NCBI GenBank assembly: GCA_010093995.1 | Contig: ML992501.1 | Location: 1,987,320-2,051,319, forward strand | Length of the DNA: 64,000 nucleotides | Reading direction: 5' to 3' | Source: Elsinoe ampelina | Lineage: Eukaryota | In this document: positions 31,851-46,860 of the stretch, piece by piece | Numbering within the stretch: position 1 is the first letter of the stretch | How the letters are laid out: each line of letters opens with the position of its first letter | The notes under the pieces: model-generated | What the model was told of the DNA's origin: nothing | Databases searched by the model: none | What the model saw: only the letters and a program-made list of their open reading frames with translations | Translations under genes and position numbers: made by a program

Positions 31851-34800
31851 TCACCCCTGCTGCGTCGTGATCACCGTTGTCTCCTCCTCTGTCGTGTCTG
31901 CTGCACCTCGTCTCACCGTCTTGATGACTTTCTTTACGGTTGTGGTCGTGGTCGTCACTACCGTCGTCGTTGTTGTCTCCGTGATCGTCTGCTCTTCCTC
32001 GGCTGACTGGACGGTTGATTGGCTGCTATTTGGCGGAGCTGCTGCGGGCTGCGCCAAAGCTGTCAGTGCTTGAGATGGTCCAGGAGCAGTGGCTACGGCT
32101 TCAGCGCTTGCTTGAGATGACTCTGGTCTGTCGGGCTGCAGAGTAGGGCTTCGTGGGGCTGTTCCTCTTGCAGATGAGGGGAAAGTAGCGATTGTTGCCG
32201 GTGCGATCGAAGGGCTTGGACGATCTCGGTTTGGAATACTGTGTGTTTCGGACCTTGTCTCCTCCAGCGCTGGTGTAGTACTTCGCATCCGACTTGTGGC
32301 ATTTGCTATCTGTCGCGGTGCACTGGGCGGCACACCGATTGAGGAGGTCCGTGGATGCGTCAGTCCTTGCTGGACGGGCATGTCGTGGCCAGCGGTCGTA
32401 ATGGGAGGCGCTCTCAAAAATTGTTGGCTTCGATGCTGCGAGCGAGGGATTCTGTGCCTTAGACCATCGTCAGTCGATGTATCTGTAAGATCTGGCGCTT
32501 GTCTTCTGGTATTTAGTCGTAGGTCTCCGAAAGGTCTAGGCAATCGTGTCTCCAAGCGATCGATCTGAGCCATTGACGATCCAGCCCGCCGATCCTTCTC
32601 AATGTCACGAGCAATGCCTATCGCCGCCTCAGAAGCCAACCCGTATCCATTGGCAGTGTTAAATTCAGTGAGGACACGGGATCCTTGCTCCAGGCGCTGC
32701 ACTAATTGAGACTCCTCCTGGCAGCTCTTCCGCCACGCATCTTTCAGACTAAGACCCAGAGCAAAGGCAACGTTTCTGTGAACAGAGTTACCAATGATCT
32801 TCCACTGCTGTTCCCGGCCCCCGAGGATGACCTCGTGGTCGGGAAAGCCTTGCGCACGTCGAGCTTCCATGACCGTGAGCAGTCTGTTCTGATTAGGATG
32901 AATGCATGTTCCAACGAAAGCGTCGATGGTATGTAATCCGGTCGTGATAGTCGTGATGATCGTATCTGGCTGTACCCTACTAAAGGACTTGCTATTTGTG
33001 GCTGACCGAGTCTTGTTGCTAAGCCAGCGTTGTGCCTGCGGTTCTGGTATCTTGCCTAGTTCATGCGCCTTCGCAAGACCCATTCCACGTGGATATTGAG
33101 GAATCAAAGGTATCAGCCTCCTTTGCTCGTGCGACAAGCGAGCTCCACCTTGTCTGTGATCTGGGAAAGGTATACAAGTGTATGTGTGACCGTCACCAAT
33201 GTCCGGTAGGTCCTTGGTCCCCTCATGGAATGTAACAGTCTCGAATGGCGCAAGTTCATCTTGGCTGGCGCCGAAGCGCTTACCATTCGCGAGGCTTCCT
33301 AGAGATGTGACGCGGAATTGCTCAGTGTCCGGTCTTGAAAGATGGCTTTGCGGCGGTCGAGCAGGTGGTGTCAGCCCAGGTGCGGTTGCTGTTACGATAA
33401 CTCGACGTCGAGATTGGAAGCTACCGTATGATGGAGCGTCGAGGATATGCTGCTGAAGCTGGTATCCGAGAGCTACTAGGGTGGCGATGATCTTCCGCAT
33501 CATGCTCTGATCCTCAGACACACCTTTGGCCACGCTTGAGATAGCAACCACATTCTCAAGATAGAAATAGTAGGGCATGTAGTGCTCGACGAACGAGAGT
33601 ACACATGCTATCAAAGATGCATGCTTAAGGGAGCGGGAGGACTCCTTATCGGGCTGAAGGATCGAGAATGATTGACATGGGCTGCCGGCAGCTATAAGCT
33701 CGATGTCGCCGATGTTGGCTCTGGGATACGTCGTTGGCCCTGCTTGGAGGGAATCTTCTAAGTATTTCTCCATTGGACCAAGGAAGAGGTTTGGAGGGTG
33801 ATTTGGATCCGCGTTGGCTCGGTAAGTGTGCAGCGCCAGGCTGTCAAAGTCGATGGCGTGCTCAAATCGCACTGCTTGCCCATCTTCAAGCCCTCGATCG
33901 AAACTGCCTCCCCCGCAACATATACCTAAGCCTCGGAGTGGACGAAGCGATGGCGACATTTGGCGGGGAAAAGGGTTTGGATCTTCAGCGTGGTAGATGT
34001 AGTAAAACAAGTCGCCAGCTCCACCTCTTCTAAACACTTCGGCGACGTCGTCGACGTTGCTAAATCCTTGAACTTCACAGAGACGGACGTGATTGTATGC
34101 AGGGGTCTCGATGTACTCTTCTGTCCATAGAAGTTCGTTCGGTGGCGCAGTTGGCTGTTTCGTCCTAGCACGCCTCAGGACTCGCAAACGAAGCCTGTGC
34201 GAGGTGTATAGGAACGACATTACCTGTCCAGGCTCGAGGATACTGTCTATATCACGACCGGTGTCAGATTCGAGATTACCAGTGCGGTATAAGATGAAAG
34301 ATCCAAGCGGGTAATCTGCAACTGCTTCTGCAAAAGGATGGGGACTGTAGTCCTTGCATCTGCAAGAGAGATGCTCTTGTCGAAATGTCGCAAATTCGTG
34401 AGAGTCAGTCATATATGTCTGTCGCACCACATAAGCCTGTTCTTGAGCAGCTGTCGCAAGATCATGATTTCCCCAGAGCACATCCGCCCGTCCTAGCACG
34501 TCTTGCAGGTCGTAGGCATCTCCACCACAGGAGCAATTGTCGGAGAGGAACAATTCGTTCTGGAACGGATAGAAGGACTGCCCGATCGATGTGTCTGATG
34601 GCCGATAGAGCCATAGCAGATCGAGCTTTGTCCGGCCAGACTTCAGCGTACGGACCTTTTGCACTAGAGCCAACCACGTTTCTTCCGTGGTAGACCACTC
34701 TGAGCGTTGATCTGGACGAACATAGACTACATCTTCTGGTTTGACTGACTTGGCTGCTTGAGGTGTGGGAGCTGTCCAATCGACGCACATTGTGCTGGCT

Positions 34801-35825
34801 GGGATCAGCTTGAGAAGCTTACGCCTGTGTGCTGTAGTGCTACGGAGCGAAAGACTTCTATCCTGGACCTTGAGAAAACCGTTGAAGCTCATCTTGTTAA
34901 ACAAGTTGTGGATGAAAGGCGTTACGATAGTGCTGTCCTCGCTACGCTTATGCTGTGGGATAGCATTCAACCTGTTTTGATCGGTCTCTGCCCAAAGTGG
35001 ATGACGATCTGTCTTCTCATCGATATCGTATGCCTCCTTCCAGAGGTAGTGTATATTTGCTGCGATTGCTGAACGGAAGTCCTCCTTAGATCCGTACTGG
35101 GAAAGCCAGTCACGGACGCATTTAGATCTGCCGAACGACTCTTCCAACCACTCACCAAAGTCGCGGCGGAATTGAGCAAGTCCAACTGTTTCTCTCGATA
35201 GCATGAAATCAAGCGAGTACTTGGCTAGATCTGCGATCCACAGGAAAGCTTCGTGGTAGCGGAAGTACTCGGCAGAAGGACAAGTCAGACGGTACCATAC
35301 GTTATGATTGGAGGCCATGTCGGATTGAATGCATATGTTAGGCGCCACTGAAGGGATGTGTGTTGATCCGTAACCGTGTATGGCAAGAGTGCTGAAGTCA
35401 ATACCTTGTACACGCATCTCGCGGCCGTCGATACATAGGCTGCCATCGAAACACAACGTGTCTACCCCAATCTCGACTTTCAGTGCATGGAGCGAGGTCA
35501 TCTCATTTGGCCTGATTGACGCATGTGGAGACCGATATATGGTGAAGTCCGTGATGTTGACGACTCTGTACTGCTGGTGGCTGATTGAGGGCAAGGTCCC
35601 GAGAGCATCTGCTTCGGACCAGATTGACTGTCCCAAAGATGAGTTGTCGAATGCGGATCTAGCTATCGTTGCATGAAGATCTCGAAAGCCAGCGAAGATC
35701 TTCTTTCGTGGTAAACATGACGGGGCAAGGTCCAATTTGCGTTTGCCATGTGTCTCATGACGCTGTGAGCTCGTCACATCGTCGGCCCCCAAGGGAGATC
35801 GCGATGGAGAGGGCGACTCTGACAT
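31851..35825 (-). CDS. dim-2: C5 DNA cytosine methyltransferase, DIM-2-like, with BAH-type region
   Basis: Intact 1324-aa ORF with WLYRPSDT...NELFLSDNC (BAH-like), motif I GICCGGG.F.RGLE, motif IV GSPCQSFS, motif VI LENV, motif VIII QSRRRVI, RAQGFPD and QWKIIGNSV. Confidence 0.88.
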   Translation of the reverse strand: MSESPSPSRSPLGADDVTSSQRHETHGKRKLDLAPSCLPRKKIFAGFRDLHATIARSAFDNSSLGQSIWSEADALGTLPSISHQQYRVVNITDFTIYRSPHASIRPNEMTSLHALKVEIGVDTLCFDGSLCIDGREMRVQGIDFSTLAIHGYGSTHIPSVAPNICIQSDMASNHNVWYRLTCPSAEYFRYHEAFLWIADLAKYSLDFMLSRETVGLAQFRRDFGEWLEESFGRSKCVRDWLSQYGSKEDFRSAIAANIHYLWKEAYDIDEKTDRHPLWAETDQNRLNAIPQHKRSEDSTIVTPFIHNLFNKMSFNGFLKVQDRSLSLRSTTAHRRKLLKLIPASTMCVDWTAPTPQAAKSVKPEDVVYVRPDQRSEWSTTEETWLALVQKVRTLKSGRTKLDLLWLYRPSDTSIGQSFYPFQNELFLSDNCSCGGDAYDLQDVLGRADVLWGNHDLATAAQEQAYVVRQTYMTDSHEFATFRQEHLSCRCKDYSPHPFAEAVADYPLGSFILYRTGNLESDTGRDIDSILEPGQVMSFLYTSHRLRLRVLRRARTKQPTAPPNELLWTEEYIETPAYNHVRLCEVQGFSNVDDVAEVFRRGGAGDLFYYIYHAEDPNPFPRQMSPSLRPLRGLGICCGGGSFDRGLEDGQAVRFEHAIDFDSLALHTYRANADPNHPPNLFLGPMEKYLEDSLQAGPTTYPRANIGDIELIAAGSPCQSFSILQPDKESSRSLKHASLIACVLSFVEHYMPYYFYLENVVAISSVAKGVSEDQSMMRKIIATLVALGYQLQQHILDAPSYGSFQSRRRVIVTATAPGLTPPARPPQSHLSRPDTEQFRVTSLGSLANGKRFGASQDELAPFETVTFHEGTKDLPDIGDGHTYTCIPFPDHRQGGARLSHEQRRLIPLIPQYPRGMGLAKAHELGKIPEPQAQRWLSNKTRSATNSKSFSRVQPDTIITTITTGLHTIDAFVGTCIHPNQNRLLTVMEARRAQGFPDHEVILGGREQQWKIIGNSVHRNVAFALGLSLKDAWRKSCQEESQLVQRLEQGSRVLTEFNTANGYGLASEAAIGIARDIEKDRRAGSSMAQIDRLETRLPRPFGDLRLNTRRQAPDLTDTSTDDGLRHRIPRSQHRSQQFLRAPPITTAGHDMPVQQGLTHPRTSSIGVPPSAPRQIANATSRMRSTTPALEETRSETHSIPNRDRPSPSIAPATIATFPSSARGTAPRSPTLQPDRPESSQASAEAVATAPGPSQALTALAQPAAAPPNSSQSTVQSAEEEQTITETTTTTVVTTTTTTVKKVIKTVRRGAADTTEEETTVITTQQG

Positions 35826-36398
35826 CGGCTTGTGGTATCAATTGATGTTCTCTAGAGACTGTACGCATCGATGCTGGGCAAGTCTCCTTCGACCAGGTTG
35901 GGGAGAAATCAAGTGAGGCTATCATGAGTGGAAGCATACTCCGGAGGTGAGAGCCCAGTTTCACCGCGCAGAAGATGCTAGAATATGGATTTTACATTGT
36001 CAAAAGCCTGCATGGCAAAATAGACATGTGAGACGCTACCTGCAATTCCCGCATGTGAAGAAACGACATTCCGGAAGACTTTCTGGTGTCCGAAAGTCAC
36101 GTGACAAACACACCATCATTTTGACAAGTTAGAGACGGTCCACGAGTATTTAGATCAATATTAATCAATGATTATGCAATTTGACTACGGTTCATGCTGA
36201 TTCTCGGTACATCCCTGGCCACGCCTTGCCCAAATACTATTCGCCGGCTGCAGCACCAACAGCACACTCAGCTTTACCGCATCGGATCCTGACGTAGCTA
36301 GATACGGCTTGCAACAGTGACTGACTCCTCTTAATCCCGTAGTACTGTACGCTCCTGTGAAATCTGTCCTGGACGCAACTCACAATGGTCCATGGTTC

Positions 36399-37754
36399 TC
36401 AGTAGTACTTTTGATGCGCCGGCTCCAGCTCAGTCACCCTTTCGGTAAGCACTCTTGCTTTGACGATGCACAGCGGTTTGATCTGGGAAGAGGTAAGCGG
36501 GATTACTGAACGGTGAAGGACGAGACATCTCACAGGCTTCCCGTCCTCGGTCGATGTCTTGAATAATGCATGGAAGCACTTGCCGGTCAACTGATATTCC
36601 CCCTCTGCAGCGCCGACTGCTTTCCCCGACACGTCCGTGTGCGAAGCTTCCACAAACGTCGAGAACTTGAATCCCGAACTCATCACTGGCGAGAGATTCA
36701 GATTGTATGCAGCGGGATGTAGGTATACTAGTTGCATCAGAGCTCGGAGGTCAAAGAAGATGCCCTGCAACTCGTTCTGCAACTCCGCTGGCATTTTGAA
36801 ACCACGCCAGATTTTCAACTCCACATCCAAAGCTGATAGAAATCGAGCAAAGGACAACTCTTTCACATGATCCAGATCTCTTTTGGACATCATCCCCAGA
36901 GTCTCGGTGATCCAATGACGGCCCTTGTCGCCGTCTTGGTTGAGGAATCTACCAGCACGCCTGGAGAAGCCTGCCATCTCATTACTGCCATCTGTCGGTC
37001 CAAAGTACCAGGACTTGTCCAGCTGATGATGTGTCAAGCGAGCCACCATGTTGATAATGAGTGCTCGATGATACATCTTAGCAGACGGTGGCATGAAAGA
37101 GTCATGGAACGGCATGGTGGGGCGGAGTTTCTCGTTGGTCCTGGGAAGACTTGGATCTTGCACTGCTATCAGTTAGCAATCGTAGCTTATGCGAGCCACG
37201 ATTCTCGATCAGAGGTGCATACTATGGTGGAGGGAGGAGATCATTTCTCCTGCCCAGTTCCAGAGGTCTGCAAACACAGAGTCCATGCGTTCCCTGAGCT
37301 CGCCGTCTGTGGCATATTGCGGCTTTCTCGTGGCGTCCAGGAGTTGTCTTTGTATATCAACATTTTGTGTGCGCAATTCTTGGACTTGAGTGTTCAGCTG
37401 ATCCAGTGCGGTACGAGACTGCTTCTCCGCGGTCTGACTGATTTGAAGTTGGCTGCGCAGTCTCTTGTTCTCTCGCTGCAGGACATCATAGTCCTCGTCA
37501 ACGCCCTGGAGCTCGTCGAACAAGCGCTTGATCCTATGGGTGACGGGATTGGACATTGTCGGAATTGTGGTGAAGTGACTGTCTGTCTTGAGTGACCGTG
37601 ATGATATCGCTCCTCCCATTACGATCTGAGTCTGATCTGTACCCTCGCTCGTGAAATGTTTAGTTGGGGGGACTGCTTTCTCATGGAGTGTAATTTCTCT
37701 GACAGGTGACTTAAGCCCGAAGCGATCGTCGTTCAGGTAGCCAAGGTCCGACAT
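36399..37754 (-). CDS. Coiled-coil protein with GrpE/MIEAP-like C-terminal motif (hypothetical)
   Basis: Heptad-rich segment (LFDELQGVDEDYDVLQRENKRLRSQLQ...LNTQVQELRTQN). Introns at about 37166-37222 and about 36484-36534. Spliced C-terminus GFKFSTFVEA...CFHALFKTSTEDGKPIKPLCIVKARV. Confidence 0.7.
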
Positions 37755-38355
37755 CTCGTAGAATGAAGCGATACTCAGGTGGGCCTCGAGCTGCTTGTTG
37801 AGCGGGGACAGATGTGAAGGAAGAGGGAAGTTTGTGTGATTGTGTGACTGAGGAGAGAAGGTCGTAATCAAACAGCTGAAGCCGATCGACTGCACAGCTC
37901 AAACTATGTGAAAAGCTTATGAGCGGTGAGAGCAGGTTGCCGTGCTCAAAGATAAATCACTCCAAGCATGTGAATGCAGCTGAACAGCCTCTTCGACCTA
38001 TGGAAAAAGTCTTCATCTCCTCAAGAACGTCCCATGATCTGAGAAACAATCACCTGATTCACAAACAATCTTAGCTCAATCATCCTTCCACTTCACACAC
38101 AACCACTTTTCTCTTTCACACGCCTCGCCTACTTCACCCCATCTCGTCGTCTGCCCTTCCTGTACCAATCACAATCACAGGAATTGAGCTGGCTGTTCGG
38201 AACTCCGTCGACAGTCTTGAGCATCAGCAGAGCCTGGACTCACCAACAAGGCGCAAAGTTGTCATTTATTGCCGGAGTCAACGACGTGCCTCTCTGCCTC
38301 ACATCACTTCCGCCACCAACCACACAGCACTTCATTGGTCACGTCGCATGGTACC

Positions 38356-40234
38356 ATGCCGGGTACTGGTGGATTTCTCGTAGTGGCGTTCGACTACGGG
38401 ACAACGTATTCGGGGTAAGCAAGGGCCTCTCTCGCCGTGTGTCCAGCTGCTAACATCGACAGAATCGCCATTGCGCACGGCAGCGACGTCCGAGCGCCAC
38501 AGAGCATCGAAGTTGTTAAGGAGTCCGTCGATCGAGTCAGGGTATTGAAGCGTCGCTAACATGAGCAACAGATGGCCAGGCAGTGATGGTTTCACATCCG
38601 ACAAAGCGCCCACAGTTATCGAGTACGTCCCTAGAGCGGATCCGCTGGTTGGCTATGAAGTCTCAGCCAATCCAAATGCCATTGTGTGCGCCAAATTGGC
38701 GTTGGATACAAGGCAAGACTTCCCAGAATGGGTCAGCCGAGCAGACCTGATGGCGAGGCTCGATGCGGTCGGAAAGTCGGCAGAAGACGCAGTGCGAGAC
38801 TATTTTATAAGACTCCGCAAGACTGCGATCGAGGAGCTCACCAAGCGAGGATTCTACAAGCAAGATGCGCCTACGGAAATTCGCTGGGTAATGACCATAC
38901 CTGCGGTGTGGTCCGACGCTGCCAGACAAAAGACATTGGATGCGGCCAAAGCGGCGGGGATCGGACCCAAAATTCAAACCATCAGCGAGCCAGAAGCCGC
39001 GGCAGTCCACGCTTTCGCCACGCTACAGAATAAGGACTTGAAGATCGGCGACGTCTACATCATCTGCGACGCAGGCGGAGGCACCGTTGACCTGATCACC
39101 CTGGAAGTCACCAGTCTCGACCCCATGCAGTTCCGCGAAGTTGTCCCTGGCGAAGGTGGACTCTGTGGCTCAGCCTTCATTAACTTCGGTTTCGAAAATT
39201 TGATGAAGACAAAGTTCGGACCGAACGAATTCCACAAGTTCTACAAGAGAAGTCCAAAGCAATGGAAAGTCGTAATGGATAATTTCGACCAGTCTGTCAA
39301 GCGATCTTTCGACATGAGCAAAGCCAGAAATCGTAAAAGAAAGTTTGAGCTACCGTTCCCTGGTATGCCCGACAATTCGACGATCGGGATCGAAGGAGGG
39401 ATGTTGAGCTTGACCAGTGAAGAGATCGAGAACATGTTCGAGCCGGTTTGTCGCGATATTCTGCTCCTGATCCAGAGGCAAGTGGATGCAGCGACCACGG
39501 CTGGACATTCTCCATCTGGCATTCTTGTTGTCGGCGGTCTCGGTCGTTCCCCATATCTCCTGGACCGAATCAACGAGCGCTTCATCGGGACACCTTCGAC
39601 GGCAGGGGTCAAGCGGGACTATGACGAGATGACTGGAGATCGATCTTCACGGCCAAAAAGTCCCGCTATGACTCTTTTGAAGCCAGCAGATGCTTGGACG
39701 GCGGTCGTGCGTGGTGCTGCACTTGGAGGCATGTCGAATGTCGAAGTCGTCACAAGCCGTAAGGCGAGACGGCACTACGGCGTGAGATATCGACCAGAGT
39801 TCGATCCGACAAAGCATTCACCGTCGGCGAAGTACTGGGACGAGATCAAGGAGAAATGGAAGGCGCGGGGCCAGATGAAGTGGTACATCAGAAAGGGCGA
39901 CACTGTCCCGGCAAATGTACCCATTCTTAACAACTTTCACCGCATCAATGCAGAAGAGCATTCTTCTGTTGGGTCAGATCTTTACTGCTGTGACGATGAC
40001 CAAGCACCACAGGAGCGCAGGGGCAACGAAAGCAAGATATACAAGCTTTGTTCGGTCGACATTCCCCGTAGGGATATCCCCGGAGGAGCCTTTCGAAAGA
40101 TGGAGAATTCAAGTGGGGCAAAGTACACAAACCTCGATTACGCTCTGGGCATGCATGTCGGATCTGGTGAGTTGCGATTCGATTTCCGCCTTGACGGAAG
40201 AGTCCTCGGCCATATCGACGCCAGATTTGATTGA
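38356..40234 (+). CDS. Atypical Hsp70 (HSPA12-like, actin-like ATPase)
   Basis: First exon MPGTGGFLVVAFDYGTTYSG, then TIPAVWSD.A, ISEPEAAA, ICDAGGGTVDL, VVGGLGRSPYL, AVVRGA and RRHYG. No canonical EEVD end. Confidence 0.92.
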
Positions 40235-40688: not shown

Positions 40689-41975
40689 ATGTCGAATTTT
40701 GATCCGAATGCTATTGTGCGGGGTGCTCAGCTGACTGTGGTTGGAGGCGAGGTCTCCTCCCTAGCATACGTGGGCATAACTGACGCGGTCTAGCATATCG
40801 AGCTCTTCAGAATCCACGCCTGTTCACAACGGATCACTACCGACAAGCTGCGTTGGCTGTTGCTGCAGGCATTGCGATTAGACTCATCGTCAGCATACCA
40901 GTACGCCTGGCAGCTCGAATGTGAGGGGCAATACACTGACAGACCCTTCAGACAGTTGGTGTCCGGATTCTACTATGGTTTCTATCACTTTTCATGGACT
41001 TGAAGTCCGCAGCTTGGGACGATGAGGTCCTTCGCAGCTTGGATTTCATTGAGAACTCGGTGCTGCAGGTACCTTTCTTCCTGATGACGTTCATGAGACA
41101 TATCAGCCCGTCTCTCGACAACATGTGAGCTCTATGGGCACATAACGTGACAGACAGCTGATTTGATCAGGTTCATGGAGTCTCTGCAGTGGGTCGACCA
41201 GACATATATCCAGAAGCACAAGTCGGAGGATCCAACACACCTTCGAGCGATGTACTACCCGAACTTGGTCATGTATGGAAATCAACCTTCCACAGGAACC
41301 AAGAAGTCACCTATGGACGCAATGAAGGCAACCTTGCTCCGCTATGGCCGCAAAGCTGCCATCTCCTTGCTGGTTTTAGTACTGTCATACATACCATATG
41401 TCGGTCGCTTCGTCCTTCCTGCCGCTAGTTTCTACACCTTCAAGAAAGCCGTCGGACTTGAGCCTGCCATCGCTATCTTCGGGGGTGGCGTGTTTCTTCC
41501 TCGACGCTACCTTGTCACATTCCTGCAAAGCTATTTTGCCTCAAGAAGCTTGATGAGGGACTTGGTAAGGCCCACCATTCTGTCAAGCTGACCACTTTGC
41601 TGACAATGATAGCTTGATCCATACTTTAAACGGATCCGATACACTCCAGAGCAGAAGAAGGTGTGGTTCCGTGATCGCGAAGGAGTCTTGTTCGGCTTCG
41701 GCGTGGGATTCTTCATCTTCCTCAAGATCCCTCTCCTGGGCGTTCTCATCTACGGCATCGCCGAAGCGTCTACAGCATTTTTGATCACCAAGATTACAGA
41801 GCCGCCTCCACCACCATCGGACTGGGCTCAGGTAGCCGACAGTCAAGTGCATTGGAAGAACAAGCATGAATTTATGAGATTGCCGCTAGACAAGCTTGAT
41901 GCGTACAACGCTAGCTTGCAGGAAGGTTCCGACAAGCAGAAATCGACAGAACCGAAAGGGAAACAGTATACATAG
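40689..41975 (+). CDS. usgS: Conserved transmembrane protein UsgS
   Basis: MSNFDPNAIVRGAQLTVVG-AYRALQNP.LF, FMESLQWVDQTY, SRSLMRDL-LDPYF, WFRDREGVLFGF and AEASTAFLITKITEPPPP. It lies upstream of formamidase, as usgS does in Aspergillus nidulans. Confidence 0.85.
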
Positions 41976-42303
41976 ACACCATCATAGGAAGACATCGAGA
42001 AGCCTCCCACGCAGTCCATGCGGCTCTGCTCAGGGCAGGGCTGCCACGCTCGGTCCAAATTAAGCGGTACACAGTAAAACCAGAATTTGGCGGGTGAAAG
42101 AACACTGCCAAAAACTACTTTGCCGCACGGTAGGATTTATGACTAAATTCTAGTATCATTCGATAGCTTATAAACGCCATAAGCTACTTTCGTTTTATTA
42201 GAATCATAACTTACGTAGCAATGCTAGAAAGTGTAGTATAAGAAATTTAGCTTTTGGTAAGGATTTAGAGTTTTAGCAGGGATTTACAACTATATACTAC
42301 TTA

Positions 42304-42343
42304 ACGTCCGTCCCCTAGATCTAAACACCACCTAGAACTAAAC
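42304..42343 (+). repeat. Left terminal inverted repeat
   Basis: acgtccgtcccctagatctAaacaccacctagaactAaac. Differs from the reverse complement of the right TIR at only two TG->TA positions and contains an internal direct repeat cctaga.ct.aac. Confidence 0.95.
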
Positions 42344-42549
42344 AGTTAGGGTTAACCCTTATTATAGCTAATCGAAGAGTCTAAATATGCCTCGATGCTA
42401 AGCCTAATTAGTGCTATTAGATTTCTATCTTCTTCTAAGCTATATACTACCTTTATATTACTTCTCTTATAGTTCTACTACTCTTAATTAAACATAAAAA
42501 GCAGTTATAAGCTACTCTACTTAAATACTAACATTAAAAAGGTAAGATA

Positions 42550-44250
42550 TTAAAGACTAAGCTCTCTTAGTAGTTCTCTCTTATTAATAAAGCTACTCTT
42601 AGTTAACGGATTAGAAGGACATATAAGTTATAGGTAATATTATATTCTTATTAACAACGACTTACTTAAGCTTAAGAAAGTGCTCTAGTTAAGTTTATTT
42701 ACTTTCTATCCTTTAATAGCTTTAATTTAAATAACTAGTAGCTTAGCTAATATACTAGATATTTACTTAAGTTAACCCCTAGCTAATCTATATATATATA
42801 GCCTACTTCTATTAGCTGTAACTAGTACTCTCGATTTAAAGAATACTATCTAGAGATTAATCTTAAATGTTATATAGCTATAGATAGTAATAGATTAGAA
42901 GAGCTTAGTAATACTAGAAAGGTAGAGGCATAGTTTAAGCTAGTAGTATACGCTATTAAAGTCTTTAATATTAAGCCTTATAACCTCTATAATATAGACA
43001 AAATTAGCTATATACTTAGTTAGTTACTTTATAAGTAAATCTAAATTATAAGTAAAGATAAGTATATATCTTATTTATGTTAATCTAGTAATTATAAGTA
43101 GGCTATAGCTATTAAGACTCTTAGTACTATTAGCCGAAGTATACTACCTTTGTTTATCCTAAAGGAATAAACTATTTAAGATAGCTAGTTTAAAGATTTA
43201 ATTAATCTTCTAGAGAATTTAATATACGCTAATACTATAATTAAGACCTTACTAACTAGATAGACAAATAACAAGGTCGCTCTTAAGTAGTTAAAGAATT
43301 ACTTTATCCCCTTTATATAGCCTCTAGATAAGTAAGAGAGAAAGGTAAAAGACCTTAATAATTACTAGTAATTACTTCTTTTCGATAGTTACTACTTATA
43401 CCTTATACTAGAGTTTATCTAACTAGCTTAGAAGTACTAGATTACTCTATTAAAGCTACTAGTATACACCTTATACTTTCTCTAGCCTCTTAACGTTACT
43501 ATATTTACTAAGCTAAAGTATAAATATTAAAGTAAGGTTTAGTAAATTATATATAAGAGTATTATATAAATTAGTAAGTACTACTTTATCGAAGCTTATA
43601 TTAATAGTTACAATGTATATTTTAGTAGTAATAGCTAGATAAGAGCCTTTAAAGTTACTAGTATCTAGCTAGTTAATCTAGTACTAGTTCTTAGTTAAAT
43701 CTAGCGCTATTTACTCTCTTAATTAACCTCTTAATTAACCTCTTAATTAACCTCTTAATTAACCTCTTAATTAATCTCTTAATTAACCTCTTAATTAACC
43801 TCTTAATTAACCTCTTAATTAACCTCTTAATTAACCTCTTAACTCTTAGATTTAGAGGCTAATTTAGCCTCTTAATTAAGTACTTAATTAAGTGCTTAAT
43901 TCTCTTTAAATTTAGAGTTAAATTTGTACTTTAATTTTGTAAAGATTTTAACCTTCTTCTTTATAGCCTCTATACCTCTTCTAGCTACTCCTTTATAGCG
44001 CTCTAACTCCTTATTAAGTAATAGTACACTAATTAAATTAGCTAAGTACTTTAACTAAAGGCTTAAGGGCCTTCTTAATAATTAGTAGCATACTAAGTAT
44101 AGTTTAGCTAGTTATTAAAGAGCTTCTTAATTCTTATTTAAGGCTATAAAAGTAATAGAGGAGAAGGTTAGTATTACTAAGAAAGAGGTAAAGTTACTAA
44201 AAAGAAAGTTATAAAGGATTAATAAGCGTGCTAAGAAGAAGTATAAGTGT
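42550..44250 (+). pseudogene. RIP-mutated pogo/Fot1 transposase (ends approximate)
   Basis: One frame contains tat aat ata gac aaa att agc (YNMDExG, 42988), aga tag aca aat (GWTN), ttc gat agt tac (FDGH, D at 43384) and tag cct ctt aac gtt (QPLDV, D at 43492), giving D35D spacing. Stops are CAA/CAG/TGG->TAA/TAG type. Confidence 0.9.
43716..43843. repeat. 12-bp minisatellite (CTCTTAATTAAC) x10 plus a partial copy, inside the transposon
   Basis: Directly visible. One unit carries a single variant base. Confidence 0.95.
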
Positions 44251-45087
44251 TAATATAATAGTAGTAGCTACCTCTCTAAAGAAGTACTTATTAGTATAAA
44301 GAAGATAGTAGAGTAGAGAAATACTAATAAGAAGGTAAAAGAGACTAATAGCTTTAAGATAGCTACTTATAAGCGTAGAGTTAACCTTAGTAAGCAAGTT
44401 TAAGCCCTTAAGAAGTCTTTAAAGCGCCTATTAAACTAGTATCTAGAGCGCCTTTACCTCTTATAACTTAAAGAGAAATATAAGTAATCTAAGCTAAATT
44501 ATAACGCTACTAAGAAGAGGCACTTAGAGTTATAGTAGCGCTATAAAACTATTAAGAGTAGTAAGAGCAAGAGACTTCTTATACTTAAGCGTAATAGCTT
44601 AGAGATTAATAAGGCTAATACTATAGTACTACTACGTAGCTTAATAAGCTACTACTAGAGTTACTACTAGAACTACTACTAGAGGTAAAGGAGAAGGTAG
44701 TAGAGAAGGTAATAGAGGAGTAGTAGTGCTAAGCCGAGAGTAATACGTTTTATAATACTTAATTTTAGTAGATTGTAATAAATCTAGTACCTTAAGAGAT
44801 TAGAGATAGCTAAAGTACTTAGTATATAGTCCTATATAACTAAAGGATATAAGGAAGCAATTCTGCACTGTATAATAGGTTATTTAGCGCTTTCTAAGGT
44901 CTTAATTATAAGCTTAAAACACTAACTCTAAGCCTTAGCCTTAAAAGCCTCTATACTATTAATATAAAGTTGTATTAGTTAAAGAAGTATAAAAAACTCG
45001 AAGGTACGCCAAGATGTATAATCATTACTAGAATTGGCAGGTCGGCGTATCTCCGGCGCTATCTCACCGCTTTCCAGAAACTGGAGC

Positions 45088-45127
45088 GTTCAGTTCTAGG
45101 TGGTGTTCAGATCTAGGGGACGGACGT
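45088..45127 (-). repeat. Right terminal inverted repeat
   Basis: gttcagttctaggtggtgttcagatctaggggacggacgt, which retains the CpA sites that are mutated in the left TIR. Confidence 0.95.
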
Positions 45128-45204
45128 TAATTTGGCCGGCGCGTGCTGCGTCAAATGCCCCGCAAATCGACGTTCGTGACGTAGTGCCGAATTCGGAAGT
45201 GTGA

Positions 45205-45369
45205 TTATCAGCGCCCCTCCAGCTCCCGTCGACGGCGCGATCCACCGCGTCTTCGATGCGCGATCGAAGCCACAGCTTATCTGAATTATTAGTCAATCTC
45301 GCACACATACTCATAGGCGGCGGGTGAACGGCATGCACAAACCCTCACAGCTCCGAGCTCTCCTTATCT
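45205..45369 (-). promoter_or_regulatory. Cluster of three HGATAA (AreA/NIT2-type GATA) sites upstream of formamidase
   Basis: TTATCA 45205-45210, TTATCT 45277-45282 and TTATCT 45364-45369. AreA-dependent nitrogen regulation of fmdS is established in A. nidulans; function here is inferred. Confidence 0.55.
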
Positions 45370-45520
45370 TTAGCTCCAAACATGGATCGGATACCCCGCT
45401 TCCACGACGGAGCCAGGCAGGTCAACCTGAGAAGTCAATTGCAAGTTCGGAGAGGTCTTCTTCCATTTCGTTCACGTCTCTTCTCTACCGACTCAACAAC
45501 AGCTGCTACAGAATTCCACC

Positions 45521-46860
45521 ATGGGCAAATCAGAGATCCGTTACGCGGCAAAGGTCGATTTGACCAAGGAGGCCGGCAAGGAGCCATACCTGCACGTGAG
45601 TGGAAGAGGTTCGCGGCGAGCGAGAACGCAGCTGACATGAAACAGAACAGATGGCACCCGGATATCCCGTCAATTGACACGATCAAGAACGGAGAGGTGG
45701 TCAAGATCGAGTGCGTTGATTGGACTGGTGGACAAATTGGCAACAACGACAGCGCAGACGACATGCTCAACGTCGACCTCACCAAGATCCATTACCTGAC
45801 CGGCCCCTTTGACGTCGAGACCGCCGAGCCAGGAGATGTCCTTCTCGTCGAGATCCAAGATGTTCAGCCACTGCAAGACCAGCCATGGGGCTTCACCGGC
45901 ATCTTCGACCGCAAGAATGGCGGCGGCTTCCTCGACGAGATCTACCCCAAGCCTGCCAAAGCCATCTGGGACTTTGAGGGCATCTTCTGCTCGTCGCGAC
46001 ACATCCCGCACGTTCGCTTTGCCGGCCTCATCCACCCTGGTATCCTTGGTTGCGCGCCGTCTCCTGAGGTCCTCGCCGAGTGGAACAGACGTGAGGGCGA
46101 GCTCATCTCCGCCTGCTCCCATATGGACAGGGATGTGGCCAAGCCACCCGAGCCCAAGAACGTCCACGCAGGTGTCGCGTCCGCAGAGATCAAGGAGAAG
46201 GTGGGAGCAGAAGGTGCGCGTACCATTCCAGGTCGCCCTGAGCATGGTGGAAACTGCGACATCAAGAACCTTTCTCGTGGTAGCAAGGTATACCTGCCTG
46301 TCCATGTCAAGGGCGCCAAGTTCAGCGTCGGAGATCTGCACTTCTCTCAGGGAGACGGTGAGATCAGCTTCTGCGGTGCCATCGAAATGGCAGGCTGCAT
46401 CACCATCAAGTTCCATGTCATCAAGAATGGGGTGGCAGATCTCGGACTGAAGAGTCCGATCTACATCCCAGGTCCTGTCGAGCCGCAATTCGGACCAGGG
46501 CGCTACATCTACTTCGAGGGCTTCTCCGTCGACGAGAATGGCAAGCAGCACTACCTTGATACCACGGTTGCTTACAGGCAGACCAGCTTGAGGTGCATTG
46601 AGTATCTCCGGAGATTCGGCTACGACGATTATCAGATCTACTTACTGCTGAGCTGTGCGCCAGTCCAGGGTCACATAGCTGGCATTGTCGATGTAAGACC
46701 TCTCATGCTCTAGTGGAGATGGTGCAGCTAACTGTCTCAGATCCCGAATGCTTGCACGACTATGGGTCTGCCCATGGACATTTTCGACTTTGACATATCG
46801 CCCTCAGCGCCGGTCAAGAAGCTTGACATGGGCTCGTGCGCCTTTGCCAGCTCCAAGTGA
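45521..46860 (+). CDS. fmdS: Formamidase (FmdA/AmdA family)
   Basis: MGKSEIRYAAKVD...LH, intron, NRWHPDIP, then ECVDWTGGQI, HPGILGCAPS, GGNCDIKNLSRG and GDLHFSQGDGEISFCGAIEM. Last exon IPNACTTMGLPMDIFDFDI. Confidence 0.96.

Follow-up and report, generated by a model that had tools for sequence, protein, structure and literature searches.

The HSPA12-type Hsp70s range from fungi to humans and have undergone a massive expansion in bivalves. Among the described systems closest to the one considered here are that of DnaK and GrpE (1DKG, grpE-dnaK operons) and the proteins MIEAP/SPATA18 (PF16026) and plant GIL1/IRKI (PF24994). The function of HspA12 itself is described as presently unknown in passages of a 2026 review (PMC13580251), and a dedicated HSPA12 partner was not found in the literature searched, which included excerpts of a review naming HSPA12 and GrpE-like. 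Herein we describe a divergent gene pair at positions 36399-40234 of a 64,000-nt stretch of Elsinoe ampelina DNA (the window), in which an HSPA12-like Hsp70 (38356-40234, + strand) lies head-to-head with a gene for a coiled-coil protein, termed the partner (37754-36399, - strand). An earlier interpretation of this DNA, the sequence-only reading, had the two genes diverging from about 600 bp of shared spacer, and this holds, the spacer measuring 601 bp (37755-38355). That Hsp70 and partner constitute a real, conserved two-gene module is well supported by the survey of other loci described below, and the module is apparently undescribed, as no earlier description of a conserved Hsp70-like/coiled-coil/GrpE gene neighbourhood was found in the literature searched.

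For the survey, metagenomes were scanned using the Hsp70 alignment, and the best 80 of 487 confirmed loci were used with the Hsp70 set to the + strand. Dereplication of these loci gave 62 groups, and in 34 of them the upstream flank extends over at least 2400 nt, the flanks of the other 28 being too short to tell. A partner homologue is located head-to-head upstream of the Hsp70 in 20 of the 34 groups and is found 4-6 kb downstream in 5 more, while a stricter flank of at least 3000 nt (32 groups) gives 18 head-to-head, 5 downstream and 9 with none. The divergent partner for which the sequence-only reading proposed to survey other fungal HSPA12-like neighbourhoods is indeed found there, and the recurrence of the same head-to-head pair in other fungi makes it more than chance. 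Searches at the protein level gave the same arrangement, as tblastn with the spliced partner and with P0002, a 169-residue fragment from E. australis that is 36% identical over partner residues 261-392, found - strand matches approximately 1.9-2.6 kb upstream of the Hsp70 in several loci (E 1e-7 to 1e-4), and jackhmmer with the C-terminal half of the partner against 5981 six-frame open reading frames (ORFs) converged on ORFs in 31 of the 80 loci, all of them on the - strand. In the 12 loci in which a single ORF covers the partner gene or its N-terminal part, the ATG-to-ATG spacer is 354-1005 nt, compared to 601 nt in the window.

The partner family was also recovered in a blind all-against-all clustering of ORFs in which the window protein was not used. 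It is the most common true neighbour of the Hsp70 (25 of the 62 groups), and all 43 of its ORFs (32 upstream and 11 downstream) are on the strand opposite to the Hsp70. Behind it come a RINGv protein, present in 11 groups, and a proteasome subunit, present in 7. As a side observation, the RING-variant gene (PF12906, 39 bits; L028:834-1934, + strand) is often present in loci that have no upstream partner. The window protein is placed in this family by tblastn (E 1e-5 to 1e-7) and by a hidden Markov model (HMM) trained only on 14 metagenome members, which matches the partner ORF of the window with an E value of 1.1e-7 and no other among the 902 six-frame ORFs of the window, and with which the spliced partner product scores equally well. 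When read from the first Met, 9 of 10 partner ORFs exactly match entries in protein collections, and the clusters of these entries include proteins labelled hypothetical from the named carriers Alternaria alternata, A. arborescens, A. tenuissima, A. hordeiaustralica and Extremus antarcticus. None of the loci contains a second Hsp70 copy. Among 401 Pseudomonadota genomes, the fungal Hsp70 profile (alignment A2, E≤1e-20) had no match and the partner profile (alignment A4, E≤0.01) had a single marginal one (E 0.0085).

Carriers of the pair are scattered over most clades of a quick Hsp70 tree, for which the only supports are those of the Shimodaira-Hasegawa-like approximate likelihood ratio test (SH-aLRT), and the downstream cases all fall into one nine-row clade (100% SH-aLRT), together with rows that have no partner in reach. 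The two proteins evolve at very different rates, as over 15 pairs the Hsp70 has a median pairwise identity of 68% and the C-terminal domain of the partner one of 24%. The partner nevertheless diverges in step with the Hsp70 (Mantel r 0.75 between the identity matrices, reached by none of 2000 permutations), which bears on the co-phylogeny that the sequence-only reading proposed to check. Such a correlation is by itself no proof of co-evolution, since linked genes under vertical descent are expected to correlate.

The designation of the + strand gene as an atypical, HSPA12-like Hsp70 is borne out by its Pfam and PDB matches and by its ATP-binding motifs. From the ATG at 38356 its three exons encode a protein of 593 residues. 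Exon 1 (38356-38414) carries the phosphate-1 motif DYGTTYSG, exon 2 (38463-38522) is placed by a spliced product that aligns with five relatives, and exon 3 (38572-40234) provides the remainder of the nucleotide-binding domain and a non-canonical C-terminal domain. The N-terminus aligns to the family start DxGTTxSG...WPG, and the motifs DAGGGTVD, EPEAAA and GG.G.S (VGGLGRS in the window) are invariant in the 36 sequences of A2. PF00012 matches with 37.4 bits (cut-off 20.6) over profile positions 137-361 of 599 only, the best PDB matches are the nucleotide-binding domains of DnaK proteins (E of about 1e-9) and end at that domain, and with the NCBIfam models of DnaK and HscA the scores stay far under the cut-offs. 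Judged by sequence, the protein is a predicted ATPase with a nucleotide-binding domain in which the phosphate-1, phosphate-2 and adenosine motifs are intact, and from which the canonical Hsp70 substrate-binding domain and lid are predicted to be absent; in its relatives the C-terminal part belongs to the precomputed family PF27033. Of the 8000 candidates that were scored, 1081 proteins are such relatives at E≤0.001, they bear the source names 12A/12B, and those from named organisms are almost all ascomycete. The closest is a protein of E. batatas (79% identity). The window Hsp70 is only 33-42% identical to those of the other carriers and to other Elsinoe paralogues, compared to about 68% among the carriers themselves, and it is a long-branch member of its group.

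The layout of the partner begins with a disordered head, continues with a long helix that spans residues 70-143 (approximately 37326-37547, - strand) and then with a helical region, and ends in a set of beta strands, and this agrees with the coiled coil, helical middle and spliced tail of the sequence-only reading. The long helix is predicted with confidence (AlphaFold2 predicted local distance difference test (pLDDT) scores of 62-82, together with sub-threshold coiled-coil matches) and the later parts are seen at low confidence only. The AlphaFold2 model of the whole partner (alignment A1, 2 sequences) has a mean pLDDT of 40.7 and is confident in the long helix and usable nowhere else, that of the C-terminal half (alignment A3, 2 sequences) has a mean of 34.9 with helical and beta parts of low confidence, and neither is good enough for a judgement on the fold. 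The C-terminal half matches no Pfam family even at E≤10, and the N-terminal half gives generic sub-threshold coiled-coil Pfam matches only. Scans with PADLOC and NCBIfam gave weak coiled-coil-type matches only, and the PADLOC scan has nothing in favour of the defence role that had been suggested as a possibility for the pair. With either the partner or A1 as the query, a word-index protein search returned the partner itself and P0002 and nothing else, and a metagenome scan with patterns of the partner gave 243 pattern matches, none of which was confirmed. What the family does share is a set of short motifs, namely W, LHPAAY, F... and FxAL.K..ExG in the part encoded by exon 2 (A4), and FD...MEDV, FP.L.K.GDE.G and NV..KA.V in the C-terminal part.

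The partner gene is transcribed and spliced. A single 2584-nt contig from the public run X1 lacks both partner introns, each of which has GT..AG ends on the - strand, and the contig is otherwise identical to the window, with zero differences. That X1 consists of RNA data is a guess, although the spliced contig suggests cDNA. On the - strand, exon 1 (37223-37754, with its end set by the contig joint 37162/37223) encodes the disordered N-terminus and the long coiled-coil helix, intron 1 (37163-37222) has 60 nt, GT..AG ends and a CTAAC branch site, exon 2 (36534-37162, supported by A4 and the HMM match) encodes the helical region and the start of the beta-rich C-terminal domain, intron 2 (36483-36533) is an in-frame intron of 51 nt, and exon 3 (36399-36482) encodes the last strand motif (..CIVKARV..), which aligns with the family end NV..KA.V, and the stop. 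The spliced tail previously proposed for this gene (..DGKP/IKPLCIVKARV..) is therefore correct, as both introns, including the one of 51 nt, are removed in the contig. From the ATG at 37754 to the stop codon at 36401-36399 the spliced product has 414 residues. The deposited model P0001 has 431, as it wrongly retains the 51-nt intron (17 residues), and the E. australis fragment P0002 runs into an intron at the same position. Gene-model errors affect the Hsp70 as well, where P0003 (the window's own Hsp70, 447 residues) and P0004 (the E. batatas orthologue, 505 residues) are N-terminally truncated and lack the phosphate-1 exons, and where the E. australis model P0006 seems to read through the intron after TTYSG. 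The models of P0001, P0003 and P0004 are corrected herein.

The same X1 contig continues (37223-38880) through the spacer, which is the presumed shared promoter region, and extends 525 nt into the Hsp70, the introns of which are unspliced. A contig from a second study, X2 (38196-38555), spans Hsp70 intron 1 and is also unspliced. These contigs carry no strand or expression-level information. The X1 contig could represent a - strand transcript, either antisense or 5'-extended, that overlaps the 5' end of the Hsp70 gene, or the assembly could have joined spliced mRNA of the partner to unspliced RNA, or to DNA, present at a low level. The spacer itself contains two CCAAT boxes.

We propose that the locus is one copy of a conserved ascomycete module in which the coiled-coil protein is the dedicated cofactor of the ATPase, and we consider this reading probable, if by no great measure. 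The HSPA12-like ATPase and its divergent, fast-evolving coiled-coil neighbour would both be driven from the shared 0.35-1 kb spacer and would thereby be co-regulated, the two proteins would form a complex, and the coiled-coil protein, probably as a dimer, would serve the ATPase either as a GrpE-style nucleotide exchange factor or as a targeting or scaffold subunit. The conservation of the partner gene next to the Hsp70 in many ascomycetes points to a dedicated chaperone partner. A complex prediction is consistent with this, as ESMFold2 gave Hsp70 and partner a median score of 0.39 (runs of 0.38, 0.43 and 0.39) while the best of three controls scored 0.00, with the runs sharing at least 80% of their contacts, a pLDDT of 66-68 for the partner and no interface given. 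In the calibration of this tool, 51 of 78 solved complexes pass its mark, as do 2 of 108 mismatched pairs and 7 of 44 blind neighbours, and a score of 0.60 or less is that of only 5 of the 78 solved complexes and of all 4 mismatches (of 180) that pass. Physical binding of the two proteins is, by this prediction, plausible. Of the cofactor pair put forward in the sequence-only reading, what stands is the conserved divergent pair, with weak support from the complex score, and what is not supported is the membership of the partner in the GrpE family.

A number of observations weigh against a dedicated cofactor. The complex score lies in the range that the tool rates more often wrong than right when there is no good prior, and the chains used were an Hsp70 without its 40 N-terminal residues and a partner that included the 17-residue retained intron. 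The 5' introns of the Hsp70 are retained in both the X1 and X2 contigs, in which neither a mature Hsp70 mRNA nor co-expression is seen, and a motif search of the 601-bp spacer found no heat shock element (HSE) and no stress response element (STRE). In the survey all loci were selected via the Hsp70, so that the frequency of the partner is counted only around Hsp70 genes; the head-to-head order is lost in the 5 downstream groups, and 9 of the 34 groups with enough flank have no partner within reach. E. batatas, the source of the closest Hsp70 relative, has no partner protein in the protein databases, and an exhaustive phmmer search with P0001 of 1.84 billion representatives had 2 matches, itself and P0002. 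The exchange-factor version in particular has to contend with a GrpE signal that is limited to one short motif. We put this version forward only tentatively, and regard it as being on the unlikely side.

Among the alternatives, the one that survives best is that the partner is not a cofactor but a client or a scaffold, an assembly former resembling MIEAP or GIL1/IRKI whose oligomers or condensates the ATPase would remodel or place. MIEAP is described as a condensate-forming protein with disordered regions (PMC10845071), and the low identity of the partner compared to that of the ATPase (24 and 68%) is more in keeping with a scaffold than with a catalytic cofactor. The ESM Atlas holds the partner with a model of its own (pLDDT 0.61), and the best cluster by features is one of 4377 ascomycete hypotheticals (score 0.96), which is possibly that of the partner itself. 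The nearest Pfam-named clusters by features are MIEAP for the whole protein (0.81), and GIL1_IRKI_C (0.84, 0.81 and 0.81) and MIEAP (0.79) for the C-terminal half, and by structure the C-terminal half has template modelling (TM) scores of 0.71 with ascomycete hypotheticals, 0.57 with a GIL1_IRKI_C cluster and 0.50 with MIEAP. Against this, every one of the named Atlas scores is below the reliability bars of the tool (0.9 for features). In addition, none of the 16 family members scanned has a Pfam match to MIEAP (PF16026) or GIL1_IRKI_C (PF24994) at E≤1, a scan in which the limits were E≤0.01 for P0001, E≤1 for its two coding parts and the 14 homologue ORFs, and E≤10 for P0002 and the C-terminal half. 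Hence, of the MIEAP-like C-terminus noted in the sequence-only reading, the nearest Atlas clusters leave a lead and nothing firmer. A link between HSPA12 and MIEAP was not found in the literature searched, where the excerpts of one study have cadmium raising both HSPA12A and SPATA18 in one mussel species, which is an anecdote only (PMC11036304). On balance we find a client or scaffold of this kind doubtful, and we think it improbable that an ancient superfamily of coiled-coil cofactors dedicated to HSPA12-type Hsp70s exists of which the partner family would be the fungal branch and which would include MIEAP/SPATA18 and GIL1/IRKI.

A second alternative is that the partner is a true, cryptic homologue of GrpE that dimerizes, opens the nucleotide-binding domain and acts as a private nucleotide exchange factor. 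The conserved pairing with an Hsp70 is as this would have it, the order of disordered head, long helix, helices and small beta domain is that of a GrpE-like protein (at low confidence outside the long helix), and the family end NV..KA.V recalls the R.A.V.V end of GrpE. With the C-terminal 70 residues of 26 sequences, hhalign places the family motif FDxxxMEDv on FDPxxHQAm of GrpE over 25 columns, with a score of 15.2 that none of 200 column shuffles reaches (maximum 14.0). The probability of that match is 2%, however, and its score is only slightly above those of reversed and unrelated controls (10.3-14.0). Over the whole domain, hhalign of A4 with an alignment of 31 GrpE sequences from proteobacteria (on average 38% identical to that of E. 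coli) gives a probability of 0.4% and a score of 16.0, with reversed controls at 14.5 and 18.1. Even at E≤10, neither P0001 nor its exons nor P0002 has a match to PF01025 (GrpE), which in 1 of the 14 homologue ORFs reaches 16.7 bits (cut-off 25.8) over profile positions 11-55, which is the N-terminal helix only. The family profile against all PDB sequences gives 3 insignificant matches, none of which is GrpE, the Atlas comparison of the whole partner with a GrpE cluster gives TM scores of 0.28/0.40, GrpE is not among the rows for the C-terminal half, and a Foldseek search of the PDB with the low-confidence model of that half found nothing at E≤0.001 and listed no GrpE. The top Foldseek rows were COMMD proteins (E 0.2), which we rejected as meaningless at the confidence of that model. 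The helical region of the partner is also far larger than that of GrpE. The motif resemblance that led the sequence-only reading to a GrpE fold is thus a real one at the level of the family, judging from these alignments, although it is short and insufficient for homology, and the proposed GrpE membership has no Pfam, PDB-profile or whole-domain hhalign support. We regard a cryptic GrpE homologue as unlikely.

The remaining alternative, that nothing more than a bidirectional promoter or an old synteny connects the two genes and that they are linked neither physically nor functionally, draws on the facts that divergent pairs are common in compact fungal genomes, that co-divergence is to be expected of any two vertically inherited linked genes, that the complex score is weak and that the neighbour is missing in some of the groups, yet it is distinctly unlikely given that the pairing is kept across Hsp70 lineages that are only 31-44% identical to the window copy and with a partner that has diverged to 14-22% identity, that other recurrent neighbours are fewer, and that the clade without the head-to-head order still has the partner within 6 kb.

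The surroundings of the pair in the window have features of their own. Adjoining the partner gene is a 1328-codon frame (31851-35837, - strand) for a DIM-2-type cytosine-5 DNA methyltransferase, with matches to DNA_methylase (111.7 bits), BAH and DUF7893. Downstream of the Hsp70, an ORF at 41613-41975 (+ strand) has a sub-threshold match to EI24/CysZ (20.8 bits, cut-off 32). This is followed by an AT-rich block (42001-46000), in which the guanine plus cytosine content is 0.29 (42-44 kb) and 0.42 (44-46 kb) compared to approximately 0.52 elsewhere, and which may be a repeat degraded by repeat-induced point mutation (RIP).

A partner kept beside the ATPase across the ascomycetes offers a concrete and genetically tractable hypothesis for the function of HSPA12, and a nameless family, the hypotheticals of Alternaria, Extremus and Elsinoe, gains its first functional context. 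If the superfamily reading were true, the orphan HSPA12 chaperones and MIEAP of animals would work as ATPase-cofactor pairs, and the fungal head-to-head pair would be a genetic handle with which to demonstrate such pairs. A kinship of the partner to MIEAP/GIL1 and one to GrpE are candidate relations that come from sequence comparison and structure models.

How, then, does the module compare with the systems already described? The ATPase belongs with HSPA12A/HSPA12B and the fungal proteins annotated as 'actin-like ATPase domain-containing' or 'Hsp70 12A-like', from which it differs in that the window copy is long-branch and in that it has a neighbour of this kind, a partner for HSPA12 proteins not having been found in the literature searched. 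From MIEAP/SPATA18 and plant GIL1/IRKI the partner differs in the lack of a Pfam match and in its link to an Hsp70, of which the literature searched has no counterpart for those proteins. What they have in common is a coiled coil combined with a globular domain at the C-terminus, predicted in the case of the partner, and these are its nearest named Atlas clusters, both by features and by the predicted structure of the C-terminal half, albeit below the bars of the tool. Compared to DnaK-GrpE, the partner is twice the size of GrpE with a larger helical region and homology to GrpE is undetected, the ATPase is HSPA12-like and by prediction lacks the canonical substrate-binding domain, and the genes are divergent eukaryotic ones rather than an operon, with no J-protein seen nearby. 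What the module shares with DnaK-GrpE is that an Hsp70-family gene is kept beside that of a partner with a long N-terminal helix, that this helix is followed by a helical part and then by a small beta-rich C-terminal domain (in low-confidence models of the partner), and that the short motif FD...(M/H)(E/Q)(D/A)(V/M) can be aligned where that domain begins.

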